A stretch of 55,972 bases of DNA, filler included, from Dimargaris cristalligena (Eukaryota): assembly GCA_003614675.1 (NCBI GenBank). It is 5 parts of 5 records of this genome, joined end to end, with 100 filler letters (N's around TTAATTAATTAA, not from the genome) between each part and the next. Parts side by side here need not be neighbours in the genome. Positions count along the whole stretch, not along the records: positions 44,899 to 55,972 come from ML003129.1; 4 more parts are not named here. The stretch is one strand, 5' to 3'. Shown here piece after piece: positions 40,537-55,972 of the stretch. The first letter of the stretch is position 1, and the number at the start of each line of letters is the position of its first letter. Position numbers and translations under genes: made by a program. The notes below the pieces were generated by a model, which saw only the letters and a list, made by a program, of their open reading frames with translations, was not told the DNA's origin and ran no database searches.

Positions 40537-41545
40537 TTTGACTGTGTTTCACGAACGACGGTGGCTAAAATCAATCGGACGGGGTGAAAAGAAGGAACTA
40601 AATGTAACTTTGGGCAATGATATTTATGGTCTGTATGTGTGTCCGCTCTCCTTTTTTTGCGGCCCACCCAGTTGGCTGGACCGCGCAGAGAGCATATCAC
40701 CACACCCCTGTTAGCAAAAGGCGGTGGGCCGGTCCACTACGCTATCCAGCGTATAGCAGCCCCAGCCCATGGTACGGGAATTTCAACCGTGGGATATTTA
40801 TTTATGTTCACTATTATTATCTGCTCTTCTGGTGTCCAACAACTAGAACTGCTAAATGTCAGGTGACCTGGAAGCCTGTGCGAGTTGTAGGGAAGGTGTG
40901 TATTTTTCTACTAGTCTATGGGGAAGGCACGCGGTTGGCCCGAGCCATTGTCGTTTACCTCTCTCCAGGCTTATCTTGATACTCTATGCCCAACCCATAT
41001 AGAAGCTAATAATACAAATACCACGGATAATAGCAATAATGAATTATGCCTGTGGTTTCAAAACGGAGAGGAAATAACCTATAGTCCATTCAGTGTAATA
41101 AACTGCGTAGGACATCTCGCCTTAGGTAAAGCAGTGCCTCGGGGCAGAGTAGGGGGGGGAGGGGAACTCCAAGGCCCTCAAGCCTAAACGGCCAGAAATC
41201 CCAAGGTGTGGCAGACGCGCACCCTTTCCATCCTCAGTGCCGTTACTATTCAATTGCAATGCATGGATTTTACGCGACTGTTTCATATCCCCCAACCCAA
41301 GTCTAAATTGGCTCACTCCCTGCTAAAGACAAGTGACACCACTACCTCTTTATCCAGGGTGCATTACACATTAAGAGGGCTATTATTCCTTGGACTTGGT
41401 GTCTGTAATGTATGTTAGCATGGCTGGCTATCCTTTCTACCCTTGAGTTTCAGCCTCCCTTTCTATCAGCTCCGTTGGTACATTCGTCCCTCTTTGTATA
41501 GTTTACCAATAAATACTATTTCACCCACGCCGCCCACCTTCTCCC

Positions 41546-44500
41546 ATGGAGCCACCCGTACCTGACAAGGAAGGCAATGCATTGCCGACTCCACCTCAAC
41601 CTCAACCTCAACCACAACCACAACCCCAATCCAATGTCCAATCACCAGCTCCCGTGGACTCGACAACCCCTTCTGTTACCCCCCTTAAACGCAAGCGCGG
41701 CCGTCCGTCCAAGAATGCCCAAACCCAGCCCGCGTCCCTGCTAGCGCCAGGGGTTATGGATTCCCCCACCGTCACCCCTCTAAAACGCAAGCAAGCACAA
41801 GCCCCTAGGAGCTCGGCCACCCCATTCCCCACCCTATCCACCACATTAGCCAGTCCCACGCGGGAACGACAGTCCATTTTATCCTTTTTTACTCCCGGGC
41901 ACCGCCAACCGAGACCGGCGGCCCCCACCCCACTACCGCCTACCACTGCGCCGGTCGGCACTCCGTCACCTTCGCCTCTACCCCCGGTTGTCTTCAAACG
42001 ACCCCGTGGTCGACCACCCAAGAACGGCTATGATAATCAACTCCAGGCAAGTGATACGATGATACCTTCGCCGTCACCCGCCCGTAATCAGCCCACATCC
42101 CAACAGCAATCGCTGCGATGGAACCAATCGGCTAGCCTTACGTCTCCCACCTCACCAACTCCTATCACTGCTAAATCACCCGTGCTTACCCCCACGCCCG
42201 CCAGACGACCCCCAGGTCGACCTCCAAAGAATACGCAAACTCCAGTCACCAATGGTAGTGCCGATACTCCTACTACAGTCCGATCGAGCTCAGCCAGACG
42301 GGGCCTGCCCGCATTGGATCGATTCTTACAGGCCCAGCCGGCCCAGGCTAGTCTGTCGCCCCCGACACCGACCCCCGATCCACCAGTCATCGAACCTCAG
42401 TCCACCCCTCCAACTATATCGAACCAGCCGGACAATTCGCCGGCGGTTAATGAAGCTCCTGAATCTACCCCAGCTGGGCGTGGTCGAGGAAGGGGGCGAG
42501 GTCGCGGGCGGGGTAGGGGTAGGGGTGCGGCCAGATCCACGCCTGGGCCCTCTGATGCACTACCCATCGCTTCGACTTCTAATGATTCTGAACCAACCCC
42601 ACTGACACCGGGAAGCAAGGGCCGCGGCCGAGGTCGAGGAAGGGGTGCGGCTATATCCACGCCCGAACCCTCTGATGCACCACCCGTCGCTTCGGCTCCT
42701 AATGGTTCCGAATCAACCCTATCGACACCAAGCAGCAGGGGTCGTGGTCGCGGTCGAGGCCGAGGCCGAGGAAGAGGCGCCAGCGATACTCCATCTACGC
42801 GAGGCCGTGGAAGAGGGCGACCTTCTCAAAACGGACCCATCGGTGGTTCCGCACGACCGACCCGTCCGGAAAAATCAGACGAAAGTGACTACGCGGAAGA
42901 GTCCGACGAGGGAGGGGCGTCCGATCATGACGTGGCCAGTGCTGCGACCAGCAGTGATTTCGAAGTGCTATCCGAGGGTCCACCATCCCCTCGACCCCGG
43001 AACCTACCGACGACGCCTAGCCAGCCAGGGGGGGCCGTTATGGCCCGGAAAATGCGCACGCTGGCACTGGCCTATGGTCCCGGCAAAGACGCCGGCTTAA
43101 GTATTGTCACCCATCCCTGGGCCCGGGAGAAGGGTACCGAATCCCTCACCCAGTGCGGTGATCATGGGCAAGGGGAACCCGCCGAGCATACACTGACCTT
43201 CAAGCCGGCCCTATACATTGACCCGTACGCATCGGTTCGCCTAACCCAGGCCCAAATAACCTACGTCCCCCTAGCCAAGGCAGCCGCCCTGTGGCAACTT
43301 CCCTCCATGACCCGCAAGGTCCAAGAAGCCCCGGCGCCCCCCGCTGCTAAACAGGGGAGTGCACTGAAAGGTGAACATGACCCCGCCACCCTGGAGTTAC
43401 CCGCACTGGAAGCCCGGCCTTTGGCCAGTGGCCGAGGTTATATTCTGAACACCGGTTTACCCATTTGGGGGCTCGACTGGCGACCCGATTTTACGGCACC
43501 CGTCACCGACCAGTACTTGGCAACCGCCGGGTTTACCTCCTGGACACAGGTAGAAATGGCCGGAACCGTTCAACAACCCCCCTCCTCCGGCTGTATCCAC
43601 ATTTGGCGGGTGTCCAATCGCTATCGGTCCACACTTAAGCCCCCGGCCAAGGCCGCCCCGGACGACGAGTCGGTGGAGGGGGTGGTGGCACCTAGGGTGG
43701 TCCTTACTTTACTTCACGAGTACGGCAGCGTCCGGGATTTACAGTGGGCACCGATTTTCTACCCTGGCCAGACCGGCGGTGGTGGTGGTGGAGGGACGGC
43801 CCCCGCCGACCCGAATGGGGGGTCAGACTCCGTACCTAACCTCGGTATCCTGGCAGTGACTTTCGGGGACGGGCGATTGTGCGTGTTCCCGGTACCCGAC
43901 CCCTCCTACCTTGAGCCAATCGCCGCACCGACCCCAGCGGCATCCCCCCAGGGCCACCAGACACCGGCTTCCCGCTCACCCATCTGCATCCAACTGCCAC
44001 CACCCGTCCTTGTCCACCAACACCCCTACCGGAGCTATCACTCGCTCAGCTGGGGAAATGCCACCACTTTGGCAGTAGGGTCCACCGACGGAACCGTACT
44101 CATCTGGAACCTCCGCCCACTCGTCCAGGAGTGGCACCAACGGGATAGCAAATCAGGGGGAGGGGGAGGTGATGACCTTGCCATGACTGCGCCCCCGGCC
44201 CCAACAGTCGATACAGCATCGGTGGGGAAACAGTACCGCAAACAACTACCGATTCTCCAAATCCCTGCCCACCACGCTACCATTCGGCGCGTGTCTTTTA
44301 GTCCCCACTATTCCCTCCTCTACCCCGACCGGGACGTCCTACCCGAGCACTTATTAACCTGCGCCGAAGACGGACGGATCAGCCAATACCGCTTGGCCGA
44401 CCCCGAATTCCCCGTGGAAACGATCCGCCAGCGCCTCCCCATTGACTGTGCGGGCTGGCACCGGTCGGGACGCCTGCGGCTTCACCAGGAGTTTACCTGT

Positions 44501-44798
44501 GCGCTCCGGGCCATCCTCCTGGACGAAATCCCTAACCCCCGCAGTCGGCGCCAAAAACACCAAGAAAGGGGCAAGCTGAGCAAGCAGACCGCCAAGCAAA
44601 ACCCAAAAGGGGATGCTGATAACGAGGACGGCGAAGGAGAAGACGACGGCGCCAATAGTGACGAAATAGCATGGCTCGCTACCAGCCACGCTGGGACTAT
44701 CCTAGATATCGACTCGTCGTACTTTTGTAATTATTTGGCATCGGCGGGTACGGATGGCCTAGTAAGAGTCATTAATTTTACCGGGGCCATCGATGGGC
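41546..44798 (+). CDS. TFIIIC tauB WD40 subunit (GTF3C2/Tfc6-like) with AT-hooks, 3'-truncated
   Basis: AT-hooks KRKRGRPSK, RPRGRPPK and PGRPPK. Tfc6/GTF3C2-type blocks ILNTGLPIWGLDW, QYLATAG, GCIHIWRV, VRDLQWAP, LGILAVTFGDG and LAVGSTDGTVLIWNL. Confidence 0.8.
42521..42760 (+). repeat. Coding tandem duplication: 2 x 120-bp units (40 aa) bounded by (GR)n runs
   Basis: 42521-42640 and 42641-42760 align in register: GAARSTPGPSDALPIASTSNDSEPTPLTPGSKGRGRGRG versus GAAISTPEPSDAPPVASAPNGSESTLSTPSSRGRGRGRG. Confidence 0.85.
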
Positions 44799-44898
44799 NN
44801 NNNNNNNNNNNNNNNNNNNNNNNNNNNNNNNNNNNNNNNNNNTTAATTAATTAANNNNNNNNNNNNNNNNNNNNNNNNNNNNNNNNNNNNNNNNNNNN
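44799..44898. other. Artificial contig-join linker
   Basis: N44-TTAATTAATTAA-N44. Confidence 0.97.
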
Positions 44899-45429
44899 GT
44901 ACCCCCTCCCCATCGCAATATAGGCCAAGTCTCCTTGGCTTATGTTGGCAGCGATGGATGGGTGGATAATATAGGGGGGGGAAGGTTATGTCCGTCCTCT
45001 AAAGGTCACGTGACCTAAATATGATGGCCCCCCTATATGGATTTTACCCTATATAGTCGGGTTGAACTTTACCCAATATTTCCATATCAACTCCTCCGCT
45101 ATACTTAAAGTTAGGGCCAGATGGGGTGTTTGCAGTGGGGTTTTTTAATATCCACATCTATATAGTTATTGTATGTCCACTGTACATTTTGATGCATTAC
45201 TTTTAAGTTGTTGCCACATGGTTATCCTACAGCATAACTGATTATTACTACCAGCTCTTGACCCTCCAGTTTTATAGAAGTGTGTTTCAATCTAGCCTTA
45301 TAGTACAGATTGTACTGGGAAAAACAAAATTGCTGGCTAAAATAGGAGTTTCCTCTGAATTCCACCAGATATTTTAGTCAAACTCCAATATAATTGTACT
45401 GAATTTCGCTTATTTTTGCCACCCTTGCT

Positions 45430-45715
45430 TGTCCAACAACCCCCCAGCTCTTAGAATACCTCCTCTGAATCAGTGACTGTTTTATCTTCCCCGCTGCTGC
45501 TTTATTATTATAACTCTTCCTGGTTTATGATGACTGCTCCCTCCCTCTCTCTCTCTCACCCTTTCCATGTGTCTTCATTTGTCCCAGCATAACTTATATG
45601 TGATTACCTGTCTCTTGAATTTCCCAATAACTTATTATTATTATTTTGATATTGGCAGCTCGCGCTTCTCGAATTGGTCGCCGCATCCTGCGTGGTATTA
45701 TACTCCCATTTCATT
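45430..45715 (+). repeat. Dispersed repeat copy A (about 285 bp), inverted relative to 54585-54850
   Basis: Shares CTTAGAATACCTCCTCTGAATCAGTGACTGTTTTATCTTCCC exactly, and TCCCAGCATAA.TTATATGTGATTACCT nearly, with the reverse complement of 54585-54850. Confidence 0.85.
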
Positions 45716-46949
45716 AAGAAATGTGGGTGAAATTCAACTCGCCCTTGTGGACTTCGATTAAGAATCTAGGCAGGTAAAGTATTGTTATCTAGATATTTTA
45801 TTATATAATTGGTCGCATCAAAAGGCCTTTTCGCTTTTCAGTCGAATATGAACACGGCCCATGAATACTATTTACAATCTAGGCCAGTACTCCAGCATCA
45901 GTGTTGCTCAACTGCTGAATTTTTCTTCGAAATGAATGAGAGTTCACTGTTGGGGATGGCCCAATTGGTATGCCATAACAGTGGGTAATACAGTTCGGGT
46001 CGAAAAAATAAGCACGCTAATGGCGAAGCTAGCTGACCCTATTTCCCCCCAATCAGTCTGGGGAAAGTCGCCAAGAAGTGGAAATGGGGTTCATGGTCAT
46101 ACGTCAGCCGGGTATATTTATAGCCGCGCCCCTGGACATCCCTGATGGTTTTAGGAATCGTTCCATTGCAGGGATTTATTTTTGTGCATGTTGTGTAGGA
46201 ATTATCGGCGGGATTAAGTAGGGAGGTGGGTGTTGCTTGTCAATGAAATATCCAGCTTTGTTGAAGGCTGTCGTAGCCGGAAATGTAGGCTTTTAGATGG
46301 AAAATGGGCCACAATTTGTTAGCAACTAGTTAATATAGCGAGGAATTGGAGATGACCGAACCCGTTTTTTCTTGGTTACTCACAAATGATGCGTGCGTCA
46401 GCCATTGGTGGGGGAATGGGGGTTTACGAGGCGTCGAAATTGGGGGGGAGTCGTTGCCACAGACTAGTTGCTATTGGCTGCGCTCTGGCGGGTTTGTTTT
46501 GGCTGATCACATCCATCGTGGGCTTTATCTGCCAATACCCACAACGGCGGGCTATTGTTTCTGGGTGTATATCGTTTGGCTATATATGGCGCAGGGCATT
46601 TAGGGGGAGAAAACATTCCTTTTTGCAAGGGCTGGCCAATGTATTTGAGCCGATGGACATTTGCTTTATATCGCACTACACTGTCTCCAATCAATGAGAG
46701 AGAGCACTCCATAAGAGTACCGATGACAGTGCAATAAAAGAGAGATATCATCGCTCTCACACATGGGGTTGAGTGCGTTGCTTTATAATTTCCGACTGAC
46801 CTAAATACTATCTATTGTTTCCAGGTTTCTTCCACTAGTGTCTCTAGCCCATCTCTTTCCTAGGTTCCCCCCCTCCGTCTGTAACATCCACCACTACTCA
46901 TTCTCAGTTAGCACCCTTTCCTCCCCGCCCTTTTCGACCTAGTGTGAGC

Positions 46950-48251
46950 ATGGGTCGTCTCACCCCTCTCTCTACTCACTCTTCCGAGGCCATCGAGCGC
47001 ACTTCCCTCCTTCCGACCGCTGGCGCTTCTCCACCGAACTACGGCACCGACCAACGGGCCTCAACTCCCCCGGCGGGCGACCAGGCCGCTGCGAACGAAG
47101 GCAGTGCCGACGCCGTCACCACGGTGGACGTTAGCCCCTTTTACGATCCCCTCAAGCTATCCGACCGCTTCAAATCCCCCGAGGAGTTGGAACGGATCCG
47201 CAAAACCCAGCCCGGTCCCGTGTACGACTTTTACGTGAGCCAAAATTCGCACATTGAGGAACTCCTCTTTACCTCCCCGGAAAACCGCATATCGGGCCAG
47301 TCCACGCCGTTTGAAAATTCCCTACAGGCCCAACTCGAGAATGACTTTGAGGCGGAGGAGGCGAGGCTGCGTAAGGTCCAGTGGGCCGTTCACCTGTCGG
47401 TCGGGGCCAACGTGGTCCTGTTCCTGGTCCAGCTAGCCGCCGCCATTAGTTCGGGTTCGCTGTCCCTGTTTGCCACTATGGCCGACGCTTTCATGGACCT
47501 CCTGTCCAGCGTGATTTTACTCATGACTAGCTGGGCCATGGCTAAACGCAACCAAGTGAAGTACCCCACTGGCAAAGCTCGGTTAGAGACCGGCGGTATT
47601 ATCGTCTTCTCGTCGCTCATGGCGACGCTGTCGGTCCAACTTATCGTGGAGAGTATCAAGTCCCTCATCTCCGGCGAACATGAGCAAAATGTCACCTGGT
47701 TTAGCATCATCTCGATCATGGGGGCCTGGGTGACCAAATTCGGGCTTTACCTGTACTGTCAGGCCCTCAATAAATACCCCAGTGCCCGCATCCTGGCCCA
47801 AGACCACTTCAATGACCTCATCGTCAACGCCTTTGGTCTAACCATGTGCTTGCTGGGGACCCATATGAGCTGGTGGATCGACCCCGTTGGTGGTATCCTG
47901 GTGGCCTTAATTATCCTGCGCTCCTGGTCACTCACCGCTTTTGAGCATGTTATCCTGATTGTGGGTAAAACCGCCGACCCCGCTTTCTTGCAGAAAATCA
48001 CCTATATCGCCTTGACCCATGACCCCCGCATCATGGAAATCGATACCTGTCGGGCCTACCACTTGGGCCACAATCTGTACGTCGAGGTAGATATTGTGAT
48101 GCCACCCGAAACGCCCCTCCATGTGAGCCATGATATCGGTGAAAGCCTGCAGTTCAAGCTGGAAAAATTGGACAATGTCGAACGGGCCTTTGTTCATGTC
48201 GATTACGAAAGCGAGCATCACCCTGAGCACAACGGAGAACGCAGTGTATAA
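46950..48251 (+). CDS. Cation diffusion facilitator, Mn-CDF clade (MTP8-11-like), intronless
   Basis: SGSLSLFATMADAFMDLLS (TM2 DxxxD), KYPTGKARLE, AQDHFND (TM5 DxxxD), WWIDPVGG, and a C-terminal ZT-dimer domain (SHDIGESLQFKLEKLDNVERAFVHVDYE). Confidence 0.92.
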   Translation: MGRLTPLSTHSSEAIERTSLLPTAGASPPNYGTDQRASTPPAGDQAAANEGSADAVTTVDVSPFYDPLKLSDRFKSPEELERIRKTQPGPVYDFYVSQNSHIEELLFTSPENRISGQSTPFENSLQAQLENDFEAEEARLRKVQWAVHLSVGANVVLFLVQLAAAISSGSLSLFATMADAFMDLLSSVILLMTSWAMAKRNQVKYPTGKARLETGGIIVFSSLMATLSVQLIVESIKSLISGEHEQNVTWFSIISIMGAWVTKFGLYLYCQALNKYPSARILAQDHFNDLIVNAFGLTMCLLGTHMSWWIDPVGGILVALIILRSWSLTAFEHVILIVGKTADPAFLQKITYIALTHDPRIMEIDTCRAYHLGHNLYVEVDIVMPPETPLHVSHDIGESLQFKLEKLDNVERAFVHVDYESEHHPEHNGERSV

Positions 48252-48848
48252 TACCTATATATTAAAGGGCTGAAAAGAACCCCGCCCACTTGTTTAGATG
48301 AGACCTCCTAGCCGTGGTCACAGGGCACGTCAATGGGGGAATAGCTAGCTATATATCCATCGACCCCATCCTATATTAACGATTGCTGCCCCTCTCCTTC
48401 TATTGGATTGTTTGACGACTCCAACCGCGACTGGTGCATCTTTTGATTCGGCTTTTATAGAAACATCTAAGAAATCCTCCTAAAAATACCAACCTTTTTC
48501 TTTATTTAACTTTTTCTAATGGCCCTACATTAAAGGCATCCCGTATCATTCTTCAAACTATTTAATTACCCCTCAATGCATTTTCAGATCTGTTCGAATA
48601 TTGCATATATATTTTATTTATGTTCCGTACATTCTCTTAAATCCTTTTTGAAAAAATATATATTAAAAAAAAAACAGCTTTTATCCATGTCAGCTATATT
48701 ACCATGAAGGGAGATTAAACAGACACGCCTGCGTCAAACTCTCTATCCGGTAGCAGTGAATGAATCTGTACAGTCCTCTACTGATCGACAGTCACGGGCA
48801 TTGTTGTTTACTTTACCCTGTCTTCATTGGAATTCGTGGTCGAGTATT

Positions 48849-49676
48849 TTAGTTATCCTTATTGGGACTACTTTCATCATCCAACACTTCCTTGACATTG
48901 CGCAGGAGTTCAGAAATCACGGGGAATCCCAGGAAAAAAGTGCCTGCGATATACTTGGCGGCCACCGTCCGAGTCATGTAGCCGGGGGCCAAAATCAGCA
49001 CCACCACACAGGTCATTCCGGCCGCCATCATTTCGAAAATATGGGCAGCCAAAGCAAAGAGGCCGATGGCGTTGACTATCCGTTGGGTCAAATAATTGCG
49101 TATCTCGGCCAGCGGTGAAATGGGCTGGGAACTGACAATCATATGCACTAGGGCTGTTAATAGGATCAGAATGATGGCTGAGGGGATTTGGGCCGGCGGC
49201 ACAAAGGGGACTTGTTTGTGGGCCGGGACTTGGCTCATCGTTTGGGAGACGATACCCGTACGGGCCTCGTCAAAAAGGTCGGTGAAACTAGCCGGGATGT
49301 CGTCTTCGTCCTGTAGCGGGTTGCGGAAGACGATGCGGACCTGCTGGGGGCCATTGGGGACCACAGGGGACTTGGTTAGGGGTGAGGATGGTTTAGCGCT
49401 GGCAGCCGCCGTACCAGGAGGAGACGAGGGTCCTACACGGTGGTATTCCAGAGTACAGCCCTGCGAATCGATGTCTATAATACGGGGGTCCCGGACCTGT
49501 TCTACGTGGGCAAAGTGGCGGCACAGGACTTCCAAGGTCGACCCGTATCGCTTGTTCAGAATGGGGAGTAAATCGAGAGCGGACTGGGCAATCGGGTCAC
49601 GTTCCGGGCGGCGCTGGTGGAGACCCGGATGCTCGGTGGCCGAGAAGGAAAAGGCCCGGGAGTGGACTGTGGTCAT
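48849..49676 (-). CDS. DUF2470-like domain + C-terminal TMEM254-like transmembrane region
   Basis: 275-aa ORF. The segment LCRHFAHV..PRIIDIDSQGCTLEY..VRIVFRNPL..SFTDLFDEA fits DUF2470. It is followed by 3-4 hydrophobic helices including AHIFE and TFFLGFP. Confidence 0.65.
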   Translation of the reverse strand: MTTVHSRAFSFSATEHPGLHQRRPERDPIAQSALDLLPILNKRYGSTLEVLCRHFAHVEQVRDPRIIDIDSQGCTLEYHRVGPSSPPGTAAASAKPSSPLTKSPVVPNGPQQVRIVFRNPLQDEDDIPASFTDLFDEARTGIVSQTMSQVPAHKQVPFVPPAQIPSAIILILLTALVHMIVSSQPISPLAEIRNYLTQRIVNAIGLFALAAHIFEMMAAGMTCVVVLILAPGYMTRTVAAKYIAGTFFLGFPVISELLRNVKEVLDDESSPNKDN

Positions 49677-51223
49677 GGCTAGATGTGGGGGATGTTATTA
49701 GGTGGAAGGGAGGAAACGCGAGAAGGTTGCTCAAAAGGAGAGTGGGAATGTTGAAAGGCGAAATGGGGCAATTCGGTTGAAGTAATAAGGCGGAACTGGG
49801 GAATAGCGAGTGTGGAAGAAGAACAGGTAGAGTATATATGCGCCCCAGCGCCAAGAAATCGAGGAGCTTTTGCATTCACAGGATAATAGGGAGGGGAGGG
49901 AAGTTACTAGTTATTTCACTGAGTCCATGATTGAGGTCATTGCGCCTTTTCGCAGCGTCGTGCAGCGTACCATTCTCTACTAACTAACTAACTGGTCGAC
50001 ACGCACGTATTATGAGGTACCCAGCCCATCGAATAGGGCGGGGCCCTCCCTCCCTCCTCTGCTAACCGCAATAAATGTGGACAGCTGTTCTCTAATGGCT
50101 GGTTAAAAAGGGACCACCCCGCCTGTTATAAAATAGTCTGTCCATTAAGCCACCCGTATAGTAACCCTAACTCCCGGTGCGTGCGGTTATACATGCCGAT
50201 TATTCGCTTAGTCCTGGTTTGGCCCAAGCATGATGATTAGTTGCCATTTCTAATTTGCACCAATCAGTTAAGGACCCTCGGAAATGACTGAGATTTGGGT
50301 GCAGAAATGTGTTTAGCATCCACTAAAAGGTATATTATTATTATTTCGAACATTCCATGTTCTGCGCCTTTGAATAGAAGCCCTGGTTTTCACATTGTAT
50401 ACATACAAAAGCAGTAAAATAGTATATATATTGTATATCTCCTTTTCACCCTGCACACATGGATGGCTCTTAGCCATAGTGGCATTTATATCAACTACTT
50501 GTCCTTGCTTATCCACACTTGACCATGTGTACGCCTTTGGGCTATTCAATTGGTGGTGAGATGGGTGTAGTTCATATATTGGTGCCTTTCTTGGTAGAGG
50601 TGGTGTATACTACTAGCCCCCCTTTAGCCCAGACCACACAATATAAAAAAACTCGATGTCTTCTTCATACACCACTTTCTTACACCCCCCTAGATACTAT
50701 TCGAAGGAGCTCCGTGTAATTCTATTCTTGGCTAGAGAGGCCTTTGGGCCAACTAAGAAGGAGCATGGCTCATTTCATTTTCTTCACTGGGGCTATATTT
50801 ATACCACAGTGACATCATCAATGCCCCTAAATAGGTCACGTGCTACAAATAGCCCCAGAGCTCATATCGTTTTACATAGGTGGGATTACATGGTATATAC
50901 TACCTTTTAAAATGAGAGCTGCCGCAGTCGTCGATTTCGTCACAGGTCGAATTGGAGGGTTGCCTTGCCACATAAGGTTCCATTGTTCACATGACATTTC
51001 TATAGTGAAGTTTAACCAGACAATGAATGGTCTCATGTTTAGCATGGGACATCAACTACAATATTTTGCTCGCCTTATTACTCTACAGGCCTTTGTCAGT
51101 TCCCCAATTGCCTCGTTCGTTGTACCTTTTTTTTTTTTTGCAATACCTAATACTCACATCGTTAGCAACGAGTTCCCTCTCCCACATTCACCGTCGAATG
51201 AACACATACCAGAACCCGACGGC

Positions 51224-54200
51224 ATGGACCCTCCCACCCGCCAAGTAGTATCCCGGGCAATTCGCAAATTGGTTACTTCTGGGCAGGACCAGCTTGACGA
51301 AAAGGAAATGAAGGTAAATTGGAGGGCCCCTTTTCTCATAAAAGTACATTTAGGCACTGGAACTGTATTCACGCGAAGACTGCTCCTAAACGCTGAAGTG
51401 CGCCCAAGAATGTACCGACATACCCTTATTTGCTTTTCCATTCCGTCAGTCGAGTCCCCTCCCTCTTTTTGCAAACCAGACCAGGCCCATGAGTATGGCG
51501 TATAAACCCATATAGCTCCACCATAAACGAGGCGACTAATTGTTATACCAACTCATTAAACTCCCTATTCAATACCAAATATAGGCCATCAAAGTCCAAT
51601 GCAAACGGGGTGACGAATTCGTCGATGTGGTCTACACACTTCTAACGGGCCAGCTTAATCGCAAGCATTCCCAAGCCCGCTACGCCTGCGCCCAAATAAT
51701 TATTGAGTTGTTCAACCGCTCGCACCATTTCAGGGACCGCCTCACGCATGACTTCCCCACGTTTCTGAGTCTGACTTTGGGGGTGTACCGGCAGGAACTT
51801 CCCCCGCCCACCAGCTATGCGGGCAAAATGAAAGTCCTGGTGGTTCGGGCACTTCAACTGTGGGTAACGAAATACGGATCCCATTACCGTGCCATCCCCC
51901 TTGGACTCGATTACGTTAAACAGAAACTTCACGTCCGCGCCCAATTCGAAGCAACTGCCGAAAACGTCGTCACCCACGCTGAAGAACAGCAACGTCAAGC
52001 CGCATTGGCCAAACGCCGGGAACACGATCTACAGTGCTTTATTCGGTTACGTAACACAGTGGAGCCGTTGTTAGTCGACTGTGAACAAACGGCTCAGGAA
52101 ATGAACTCGGGGCTAGAACTTCTTGTACCCGATGTAACGGGCCCTGCGCCCATCCGAAGGTCAACTGGAAGTGGAAGAAGGGATCAGGCCTCCTCTTCCT
52201 CATCATCACCACTGGCCCCATCTCTCTCGTATAAAGATACCATGGCCTATCTCGGCATGGGCTCTAGCAACTATCAGCTTACCCTAACCTTCAACCCAAA
52301 CAACCCCCTTAACGTGACCGAGTCGGCCGAGAACACCGTTATTTTCGACACCCTGCGGGAAGGCCTTAAGGTAATCGACGAGAAATACTGGTCAACCCTC
52401 ACGGCGTCGATCGTTGAACTGTCAAAACTGCAAGTAGAGTCGGAAAAAGAGGCACTGGATCAACTGATCAAGCGCATGATTAACGAGAAAAGTCGACTGC
52501 GGGTGTTGCGCCAGAAATGCGCAGAGCTCAATGTGACCGTCCCCTCGAATGAAGGTGAGCAGTGGTCTATTTTATACATCTACAGTCTTATTTTGAATAG
52601 GTTACCAATACGTACTATAGGCTAGACTACCAGTTAATCCGAACTCGCTCTTTTCTCACTAATTATTTTTTTAGAATCCTATTATCCTATTATTTATTGT
52701 CACTTGCGGGTTTTTGGAATTAGATCCGGATGATTTTGAGGATGTACTCATAGGTGACGAGCCAGAACCATTGGCGGCCGTTCCGTCGGTTACTCCTATG
52801 TCACCTCAACCGGAATCTCCAGGCCAGTCTGATGCACCATCAACTGTGGCCAATAAAGCCGGGCCCGATAGCAATGCTGATACCACATTCTCACCCAAAA
52901 GTTACAGGCACACTCCATCACCGGCTCGAGTAAAGCCGAAGCCCACTACCGATAAAGTGAACCATGACCCACAGTCCACTGGCAGCCATCTCAGTGAAGT
53001 AGAGAAAGGTAAATTTCTTTACTTTAAATTAATTGTCCCACAACCCCCTTTGCCAAATCATTTTAACTTGAGCTATAATGGATTTGTTCCATGCGACTAG
53101 GCTACTACACCATTGATGTAAACTGAGCTGGCTTACTATCTACCCCTCCCTATAACACAACATTATATATATGTTACCATGTAATAACTGCATCCGCTGC
53201 TCAAACAAATCGCAACTGCCAGAATTACTCAAGATCGCCCCTGTAGTTGAGTACGGGACAGATCTCTATTATTGGGACAAGGACGAAGTGGCATTTAATC
53301 AAGGTGGAATCGGTAAGAATGAGTGGAGGTCGCTATATATTACTCCATGCATTATCCCTAAACATCCTGCAACTGGCTATGCTTGACGATCACTGAATCG
53401 ATAAACAACATTATCTCTAATAGCCGGATAATTATAATCCCCTCAACCTGTTCGTTCCCTTTGGCCTGGCTACTTTCCCCATTACACCCTACAGAATACA
53501 ATCATCGGTTTTACGGCGAAGGGGGAGGGGAAAAATTCCTGTCGCGTGAGACACTGGACCAACTTCGCAAGCGGGCCGTATACCTGACCCCCAAGCGGCC
53601 TACCGCAATCAAGGCCTGTCGGGCACCCCTTAAAACCGGAGGACTCTGTCCCCGACGCGATCTAGTTAGGTGCCCTTACCATGGCCCAATCGTGCCCCGG
53701 GACGAAACGACCGGTCACATCGTTGACCCCCATGTTCCGGGTGATCAGAAAGGCAAGAAGCCGGCGGTGCCCGACGGGGGTGATGGGTCGGCTGAGTCGG
53801 GTGAGCAGCAGCCGGATACGTTCGAAGAACTCTTAACAGGCCCTCCTCCCGCCTTGCATCCCGTGGACCCTTCCTCCCATTCCTTTCCGCCGGCATCTAA
53901 TTACTCGAGCCTGGCGCATTCGGAAACAAGGCCTTTAGAAATAGAGACCAGTCGATATGCGTGGGAGGAGATTGAGGATGAAGTCAATGCCGCATTGGGA
54001 CTAGATAGAGGGCAGTTTCCGACGGGGTCGAAGCGGAAGGGCCGTAAGCGGGGTTCTAATCTCATTGATATCAGTGAAACACAAAATACGGCCCGGCACC
54101 GACTTCAGAGGCGGTTAGATGACCGCCGGGTTCAGAAACTCATGACTGAGGTAGGTCATTTTTTGCGAGTCATGATTAGATATAGTCACTTCTACTTTCA

Positions 54201-54389
54201 ATGTGTAATGTATATTGGTCATTCGCAGCAATGAAATAGAAATGTAGTAATTTACATAATAATGGTAATGATAATTAATGCCGATATTTGAAAATTCATA
54301 TAATTACTGTTGGTTATTATGAATAGGACGCTCAGTACCAATTAGCTGTTCGGCAGAGAGAGAAAAACGCGGGAAACTGGAACTCTTAA
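51224..54389 (+). CDS. UVSSA: UV-stimulated scaffold protein A (UVSSA) homologue, 6 exons
   Basis: Exons 51224-51313, 51585-52554, 52724-53008, 53223-53312, 53495-54150 and 54327-54389 join in frame. VHS domain: KLVTSGQDQLDEKEMKAIKVQCK..HSQARY..ELFNRSHHFR..LGV..LPPP. DUF2043/Zn finger: APVVEYGTDLYYW, HRFY, CRAPLKTGGLCPRRDLVRCPYHGPIVPRD. Confidence 0.88.
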
Positions 54390-54584
54390 AATAGACCCAG
54401 CTATTTGTGTTTATAATTTTATAACATTTTTTGTATATAGACCACCAGGCTTAAATCCCTATAGCACTGATTTATATATACTGCTAACATGGCTCTATAT
54501 GTCTATTGATTGTTGGACTGTAATAATATTAAGTGCCATGGGTAAAAATGAGAGAATTCTAAGACAGTGTGGGCTTTTATTGGG

Positions 54585-54850
54585 AAATAAAGTGGTGGCT
54601 TGATAGCATGCTGGATGCAACAACCCATACATGAAAACCGAAAGCTACAAATATTAAAGAAGCACAGTATGGGGAAACTGAAGTAATAGGTAATCACATA
54701 TAACTTATGCTGGGATAAAGGTATATACAGGGAGAGAGACAGTAGCCATCATAAACCTCTAAAAGTTGCACTAAAATAACAGTAGTAGGGAAGATAAAAC
54801 AGTCACTGATTCAGAGGAGGTATTCTAAGTGCTGGGGGGGTTGTTAGATG
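54585..54850 (-). repeat. Dispersed repeat copy B, inverted and transition-mutated relative to 45430-45715
   Basis: The reverse complement aligns to copy A over about 270 bp. Differences in the well-aligned blocks are mostly C->T and G->A. Confidence 0.85.
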
Positions 54851-55330
54851 TTGCCTGGGTTAACCACTCTTAGTCCATCAAGAGTCTTGGGGATAGGCTT
54901 CTAATGGTAGGCGGGGTGTTGGGCACAGCTAAGTAGGCTGCTAGCATTAGGTGGGGGCTGTACTAACTAAATAAAGCAAGTGTAGGTTACATATGTAGGG
55001 GGTGGGCACTGATGCACACTTACTAATCAGTATGAGGGGGTGAGTGTATATAGGAGTTTATTTGGGGTAAACTAGGGGGGTAAGAATAAGCTAAGAAATC
55101 TAACCAGTCCCAATGGGGCCCAGTTATATATATACAGGAGACTACTCCAAAGGGAGGTCCCAAGGGGAAACTACATAACTAAGTTATCAATAAGAAAGGT
55201 CAGGTAATCCTTGTATAAGAGAAGGATTCCATAGGGACTGGAAGATACTAGGATCATTAGGGAGTAAGTAGTATAAACCCCAGGGGGTCTGGCCGGCAAG
55301 GTAATACATAATGTTTGGTGCCCAGGTAGG

Positions 55331-55746
55331 ACTGGGGTGTCCAATATGGTGCTATAAGGCCTGATATGGCAGTGATCATTAGAATGGATTAGGCTAAATT
55401 AGAAGGGGCAACATTTTCCATATTAATTTTATTAGTTACTTAAGTATTACTTCCTGTAAAGAACTGAAATCAAATCCTCAAAAACTGAACTTAATTTGAA
55501 AACTTAAAGAAGAAAAGGTAAAGATGATAATAGGCTTACTATTCTAAGAGGTAATAGTAAGGGGGAGTATTTATACTCAAGAAAGGAAGCTTAAATAAGA
55601 AGATAAAGGAATAATGGAGAAAGAGATAGAAGGTCTCAGAATATTGGATGACTAAGCAAAGGTGTCACCTCTCCTAATTTAACCTAATCTGTCCCAAATG
55701 ATTACCATCATAGCAGGCCTTATAGTGCCATATTGGACACCCCAGT
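55331..55746. mobile_element. Degenerate MITE (non-autonomous DNA transposon), 416 bp, with terminal inverted repeats of about 83 bp
   Basis: 55331-55413 versus the reverse complement of 55663-55746: the first 19 nt are identical (ACTGGGGTGTCCAATATGG), with 16 mismatches and 1 indel overall. AT-rich non-coding interior. The right end CCCCAG|TA fits a Tc1/mariner-type TA target site, but the left side reads GA. Confidence 0.82.
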
Positions 55747-55972
55747 ATCACAGTGCGGTGGTGTCAAGCCACTAAAATGAACAACAAAATATATCAAAAA
55801 GGGCAGGGTGGCTTCTCCAGGTGAACTGGTTAGTCACTCTATAAAATTCTTTAAAAATATAATACTTTTTATAATAAAATAAAACCAGTTTAAACCAAAG
55901 TAATAGAAATACCTGTTTGGAAGCTCAAAAGGACCATTTCCTTGGCAACCACAACTTCAGAGGCATAAAGAA

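Follow-up and report, generated by a model that had tools for sequence, protein, structure and literature searches.

CpG decay with a secondary CpA component in the repeats of the zoopagomycete fungus Dimargaris cristalligena

Does the CpG-poor end of a contig of Dimargaris cristalligena (Zoopagomycota) record a RIP-like hypermutation of repeats, as the original prediction proposed, or some other form of decay? The DNA analyzed here (the window, 55,972 nucleotides) consists of five contigs joined by N spacers and is drawn from an assembly of 30.65 Mb in 2220 contigs. The spacer at 44799-44898 marks the junction with contig ML003129.1 (G000:C922, 44899-55972), and the CpG-poor stretch is the final 1583 bases of that contig (54390-55972), at its far end. 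The stretch contains 4 CpG and 52 GpC dinucleotides where 55 CpG are expected from its base counts, confirming the roughly 4 CpG in about 1580 bp first noticed here, and its CpG observed/expected ratio (o/e) is 0.07, against 0.86 for the whole window. The minimum among 144 overlapping 1583-base windows of unique non-ORF DNA in the window was 34 CpG, and the same minimum was found within the 22 of these with less than 41% GC. The UVSSA gene (51224-54389, plus strand; start and exon limits judged by eye) ends in a TAA stop codon at 54387-54389, directly before the stretch. Its exons are rich in CpG, as had been claimed for the neighboring exons, and matches to the Pfam domains UVSSA_N (E 1e-26) and DUF2043 (E 4e-20) support its identity. 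The original prediction was conditional on an early-diverging host. The host is indeed a zoopagomycete and not an ascomycete: a protein from the window matches a D. cristalligena entry at 100% identity, followed by D. verticillata and two Dispira species at 79-80%.

Contigs from the sequencing runs X1, X4, and X5 match the window over the parts that they cover, and so an assembly artefact is an unlikely cause of the stretch. The X1 letters are identical over 45462-54817, 55343-55492, and 55463-55786. The DNA of the window may itself derive from X1 and X4; X5 is another sample.

The stretch consists of LTR-type repeats nested at the end of the contig, together with a two-copy repeat. Following UVSSA are copy B of the two-copy inverted repeat (54600-54848, minus strand), a solo LTR of family E (54849-55413, plus strand), a piece of the LTR-like family M (55455-55662, plus strand), the inverted end of a second E-type LTR (55663-55745, minus strand), and, interrupting the latter, the start of the younger LTR-like family C (55746-55972, plus strand). 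The solo LTR is 565 bases long, runs from TG to CA with a 7-base terminal inverted repeat, and has 2 CpG. No target-site duplication was found at this copy; elsewhere in the family, for which 40 of more than 1000 candidate genome places were scored and 35 copies examined, a 5-base duplication, one mismatch being allowed, was present in 13 of the 27 copies with both ends located. The family M piece has the fixed TG start seen in its 11 copies and no CpG. The family C piece has 1 CpG and is 93-98% identical to 10 other copies, mostly at contig ends. At one locus (L175) an E end adjoins a Copia-type body, but no primer-binding site is evident beyond the E end; E is at most a candidate LTR of this Copia family, and we assign it to no superfamily. 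The E-type LTR end at this locus (L175:8195-8419, at the end of G000:C1124) retains its CpGs, with 11 of them in the final 419 bases, and lies beside about 8 kb of Copia-bearing DNA nearly without CpG. Elsewhere in the window, a 120-base tandem duplication (42500-42759, 79%) codes for RGRGRG-rich repeats within a long ORF (41513-44798).

The CpG loss is restricted to repeats, as claimed: only 4 of 200 1-kb windows of contigs C1 and C2 had a CpG o/e below 0.5, and all four lay at or beside an LTR copy. Counts in the window and in C1 and C2 showed CpG to be kept in genes and depleted in repeats. Measured against two CpG-rich copies, decay in family E amounted to 109/136 at CpG and 33/391 at CpA; in families bearing an integrase, 36/90 CpG sites had changed compared with 218/3676 CpA sites. 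The cells of 32 CpG columns in family E read CG 236, TG 347, CA 327, TA 38, and other 32. Thus, CpG decay is near saturation, with the TG and CA products about equal. A coupled CG>TA double hit was considered as a separate process but is not needed, as TA made up 5.3% of decayed CpG cells against a CA>TA rate of 8.5% in never-CpG columns. Taken alone, the CpG part of the pattern is ordinary. Copies of family E (L011, L074, L084, and L089 versus L029, L071, and L076) range from 1 to 27 CpG at mutual identities of 73-82%; being about equally distant from one another, they indicate that exposure varies by locus and not with age alone. A 381-base repeat (L198:5827-6207 and L144:359-739, 97.6% identical) has CpG o/e values of 1.45 and 1.24 and has so far been spared decay.

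The comparison from which CpA hypermutation was originally proposed is that of copy B, with 1 CpG, and copy A (45432-45700, plus strand), with 7 CpG in the aligned piece. Copy B makes up about 250 of the 1583 bases of the stretch; the remainder belongs to other, high-copy families. A low-sensitivity search gave no further A/B copies beyond two candidates per query. The two copies differ at 57 of 253 aligned positions, 28 of them transversions. At CpG there are 6 differences with C in copy A and none in reverse, and so the claimed decay from A to B held for this dinucleotide. At CpA, however, the differences run both ways (7 versus 5), as they do at CpC (1 versus 1) and CpT (4 versus 5). The motif pairs that had been quoted are all present in the sequence, but the CpA-to-TpA changes among them are a selection, and the pair is weak evidence of CpA change. 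Copy A was also rejected as an undecayed ancestor, given the two-way CpA differences and the variation of its own CpGs between samples: X5 reads TpG at two CpG sites of copy A (45682 and 45691). One extra CpA/TpA difference was found between X5 and copy B, at 54607. The inverted pair flanks about 9 kb with three genes, which we take to encode a transporter of the cation-diffusion type, a small protein not assigned to a family, and UVSSA. The pair may be a trace of an old inversion, lying at its breakpoint, or of a lost element whose ends it represents.

A CpA excess nevertheless emerged from the larger repeat families. Changes were counted at sites with agreeing flanks and polarized by the majority letter among related real copies; changes shared by related copies are counted more than once in the figures that follow, so that the cells are not independent events. 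In the never-CpG columns of family E (35 copies), C>T changes occurred at 71/863 CA, 82/2129 CC, and 53/1462 CT sites, a CA/(CC+CT) ratio of 2.2 (1.4-3.4, bootstrap over these columns). Family C (37 copies) gave 93/819, 3/549, and 13/571, respectively, for a ratio of 7.4 (3.5-22), and CA>TA accounted for 20 of the 38 changes in its 11 young copies, spread over 16 columns. The corresponding counts were 49/242, 32/731, and 54/927 in family F (21 copies) and 10/86, 5/108, and 3/154 in family M (11 copies), so that across the four LTR-type families the CpA rate was 2.2-7.4 times the CpC/CpT rate. Of the 67 integrase loci, 34 were unclustered and left out, and the remaining 33 formed 10 clusters; the polarized count covers 25 copies in 6 clusters, the other 4 being pairs that entered the pairwise count only. 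These six integrase families yielded 218/3676 CA, 50/3420 CC, and 91/3755 CT (pooled ratio 3.0), with T>C rates of 0.010-0.019. Their CpA changes were alike on the two strands (104/1933 and 114/1743). By these counts the CpA>TpA excess over CpC and CpT is real and reproducible across ten repeat families, including at sites that were never CpG. The part of the original prediction that concerned CpA in repeats therefore stands for families E, C, F, and M and the integrase families but not for the A/B pair on which it was based.

The CpA change is coupled to CpG loss. In family E the CA rate rose from 9/174 in the 7 CpG-rich copies through 33/443 in the middle group to 29/246 in the 10 CpG-poor copies, a 2.3-fold difference between the extremes (p 0.024), whereas the CC+CT rate stayed level (28/692, 67/1884, and 40/1015; p 0.90 for CpG-rich versus CpG-poor). 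The Spearman correlation of CA change with CpG over the 35 copies was -0.56. At third codon positions, 7 disjoint CpG-poor pairs gave a ratio of 3.26, and 2 CpG-rich pairs still gave 1.49 (p 0.014 for the latter). This coupling, the best sign of a connection, suggests that CA decay is part of the same repeat-directed state as CpG loss.

Unique DNA offers a comparison. X5 differs from the window at 17 sites in 8.6 kb of unique DNA (about 0.2%), and the 14 transitions among them fall at CG 7, CA 3, CC 3, and CT 1. The contrast of 3 CpA with 4 CpC/CpT is not significant in so small a sample (p 0.69). Across the end of copy A and the CpG-poor stretch, at least 4 CA and 5 CC/CT differences occur among those listed, and at least 6 lie within the stretch itself (CG 1, CA 3, CT 2). 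The strain comparison is too small to argue for or against restriction of the CpA bias to repeats. In the gene-rich unique DNA at 45760-54389, strain transitions are enriched at CpG (7/14, p 0.014), which may point to a low level of methylation in gene regions or to a CpG effect that is general. X5 also shows 12 differences, half of them transversions, in the 710 bases at 45050-45760 (1.7%, against 0.2% in unique DNA). In unique non-ORF DNA, T/(C+T) was 0.557 before A, 0.456 before C, and 0.586 before T. No recent host gene duplicate was found among the matches listed for 200 kb of C1 and C2. Of seven HSP70 loci the closest pairs are 71-77% alike, and the third positions of three paralogue pairs, which are old, under selection, and not independent, showed no CA excess (CA 29/170 versus 69/279).

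Profile searches with PF00145 and TIGR00675 detected two DNA methyltransferase genes, on contigs C729 and C715. The C729 gene has RFD, BAH, and methyltransferase domains with the N-terminal catalytic motifs present. The best solved-structure relatives of its methyltransferase domain are DNMT1 enzymes (E 1e-32); 9BAQ, which we take to be Neurospora DIM-2, scored 1e-17. Orthologues occur in five sister Dimargaritales at 75-79% identity over the domain. The gene (L033:2724-6770, at the end of G000:C729) is cut by the contig end in the middle of the catalytic domain, and residues 1433-1864 (the last ~430) of the D. verticillata orthologue had no match anywhere in the assembly, showing that genes can be absent from it. 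The C715 gene is presumably DNMT2-like, judging by its CFT motif. Two other BAH genes had no methyltransferase domain in the parts scanned (596 of 960 and 629 of 1827 residues). Searches with PF00145, TIGR00675, BAH, and DNMT1 proteins gave no RID- or DIM-2-type gene in this incomplete assembly. Of the enzymes that had been suggested as candidates, DNMT1 is thus represented, by a cut gene and alongside a DNMT2-like one, and the absence of RID, DIM-2, and DNMT5 is tentative.

We consider that the pattern probably reflects repeat-targeted cytosine methylation by DNMT1, with CG as the main and CA as a secondary site, followed by gradual deamination, and give this reading a probability of about 0.55. 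Transposon copies would be cytosine-methylated after insertion, and the methylated cytosines would turn gradually into thymine on both strands, presumably by spontaneous, non-enzymatic deamination. CG would be the main target and erased early; CA would be a secondary one that goes on decaying some 2-9 times as fast as CC and CT, in the order CG >> CA > CT >= CC. The observations that this reading would join are the anatomy of the repeats, the spectrum of substitutions in them and the link of this spectrum to CpG loss, the strand symmetry, and the DNMT1 gene. The likeliest writer would be the single DNMT1 (RFD-BAH-MTase). As the sole DNA C5-methyltransferase found, it would need de novo activity and a specificity less strict than that of its mammalian counterpart. 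Methylation of CA by DNMT1 is the weak step of the mechanism, because the mammalian enzyme is reported not to methylate non-CpG sites (PMC6266221).

True RIP, which also strikes duplicated genes, would consist of pairing-triggered premeiotic bursts with a preference for CpG and CpA, here carried out by some enzyme that is not RID. One RIP feature is present, in that both strands of the repeats show C>T transitions, and CpA is the preferred context outside CG. CpA is not the main target, however, since CpG decays faster. RIP is expected to leave burst-like, strand-coordinated clusters in each copy. Strand heterogeneity was absent from a set of 20 copies (chi-square 13.3, df 14, p 0.50). Neighboring changes shared a strand in 111/195 cases where 105 were expected, an excess that is not significant (p 0.21; p 0.08 by shuffling within copies), although L159 is a copy with 12 same-strand changes in a row. 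The CA>TA load scales with other divergence (rho 0.58). Nearly identical 2-kb copies persist (L113-L115, 99.6-99.7%; L151/L155, 99.6%) with a CpG o/e near 0.57, and integrase open frames extend to 1963 codons; rare sex could mask RIP in such young copies. The RIP index cut-offs are a product index above 1.15 with a substrate index of at most 0.75. The CpG-poor stretch has a product index of 1.23 and a substrate index of 1.09, the latter outside its cut-off, as it is in all 35 E copies, none of which passes both. Family F, the oldest, comes near the composition typical of RIP (product index as high as 1.86, substrate index as low as 0.71), with 1 of the 9 copies listed passing both. We rejected these indices as evidence: the product index is 1.42 in CpG-rich E copies and 1.31 in CpG-poor ones and is largely inherited LTR composition, and across C1 and C2 the composite index is positive in 80 of 398 windows. 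Composite-index signals have been described in Entomophthorales (PMC11105155). With CpG dominant, no strand-coordinated bursts, surviving near-identical copies, and no RID- or DIM-2-type gene found, the RIP-like process of the original prediction is not borne out in the mechanistic sense. We regard true RIP as improbable; the pattern appears to lie outside RIP, as methylation decay with a Dim2-like CA shoulder.

Other explanations keep the methylation but change the enzyme, or dispense with it. DNMT1 may account for the CpG decay alone, with the CpA decay due to a missing or recently lost DIM-2-type enzyme as in Zymoseptoria tritici, where Dim2 causes mitotic C>T changes at CA (PMC8016269). 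Basidiobolus and Conidiobolus proteins group with Dim-2 in a published tree (PMC10538959), and an assembly of 2220 contigs that lacks part of DNMT1 itself could lack another gene. Nevertheless, our searches returned the C729 and C715 genes only, the row for Linderina in that work gives one DNMT1-clade protein with the adjoining column marked ND (PMC10538959), and CG, spared in Z. tritici, is the main casualty in D. cristalligena. We think this explanation unlikely, if the strongest of the alternatives. Less likely again is a general CpA>TpA bias of the fungus, or of poorly repaired heterochromatin, that requires no CA methylation and shows in dead repeats only since these are neutral. Strain SNPs that are alike in repeat and unique DNA, at small n, and the mild CA excess (1.49) in CpG-rich transposon pairs are consistent with such a bias. 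It does not predict that E copies of high and low CpG content differ 2.3-fold in CA rate with CC/CT equal, and T/(C+T) before A in unique non-ORF DNA is intermediate between the values before C and T; the HSP70 pairs, with the reservations given above, also lack a CA excess. Least probable is an origin in retrotransposition, through errors of reverse transcriptase or editing of the cDNA by a deaminase. Every well-sampled family is LTR-type or bears an integrase, as this origin would have it. Such editing is expected to be strand-biased, yet both strands change alike, and there is little CA bias in the divergence between active lineages (ratio of 1.2 at the third positions of mixed pairs).

Methylation by DNMT1 with gradual deamination, the reading that we prefer, can be set beside several known fungal systems. 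In Microbotryum, Melampsora, and Puccinia, methylated transposons undergo CpG decay in the presence of DNMT1/Masc2 enzymes (PMC4352252). D. cristalligena resembles these fungi in its repeat-restricted CpG>TpG loss, its DNMT1 of RFD-BAH-MTase architecture, and the failure to find RID; it differs in having a secondary CpA component with DNMT1 alone detected, whereas in the fungi of that study a CpA signature is reported to accompany only RID/Masc1 (PMC4352252). With Z. tritici Dim2 it shares CpA>TpA change in repeats, a presumed tie to methylated regions, and, presumably, independence of a sexual cycle, but in Z. tritici CG is spared and more than 98% of C>T changes are at CA, whereas in D. cristalligena CG goes first and no DIM-2 was found (PMC8016269). 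The RID-dependent RIP of Neurospora and other Pezizomycotina likewise produces C>T changes on both strands of repeats with CpA preferred among non-CG contexts. Unlike Neurospora RIP, the process in Dimargaris is dominated by CpG, appears clock-like and unclustered by strand, and leaves near-identical repeats; no RID was found.

Closer relatives provide further comparisons. Repeat 5mC has been described in Phycomyces (CG and CHH, with DNMT1 plus DIM2) and in Linderina pennispora (PMC11258239). Linderina, which belongs to the same subphylum as Dimargaris, is likewise a zygomycete-grade fungus with repeat-confined 5mC, a state that Dimargaris presumably shares; the work on these two species concerns methylation and not the substitution spectrum, and Phycomyces has DIM2 (PMC11258239). 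The RIP-like signal in Entomophthorales, also Zoopagomycota, is index-based, whereas the evidence in Dimargaris consists of substitutions (PMC11105155). RIP-like k-mer signatures are reported as confined to ascomycetes in a survey of scaffolds above 50 kb, whose main text does not name Dimargaris (PMC12543289). With the column meanings of the supplement taken from the tree, Linderina is listed with one DNMT1-clade protein, and Basidiobolus and Conidiobolus with proteins of the DIM-2 clade (PMC10538959). In row 73 of supplement file 1, Coemansia reversa is given KXN73869, a protein labeled Conidiobolus in the tree (PMC10538959); this is probably a table slip and affects the counting of Coemansia as a DIM-2-clade bearer. 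Further background came from PMC7862722 and PMC13297926. We found no report of such decay in Dimargaris or Kickxellomycotina in a search that took in few subscription papers.

In ascomycetes, repeat decay biased toward CpA has been linked with RID or DIM-2, and the fungi that have only DNMT1 are described as CpG-only. If a CpA component does arise in a lineage with DNMT1 alone detected, then either DNMT1 exceeds CG maintenance or another route exists, which bears on the origin of RIP out of ordinary repeat methylation. We put forward only tentatively that D. cristalligena is a DNMT1-only zoopagomycete with a repeat-directed CpA mutator independent of RID and DIM-2, whether a de novo, CA-active DNMT1 or an enzyme-assisted deamination. 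Such a mutator, if real, would represent an independent or ancestral route to RIP-like transposon inactivation outside Dikarya.
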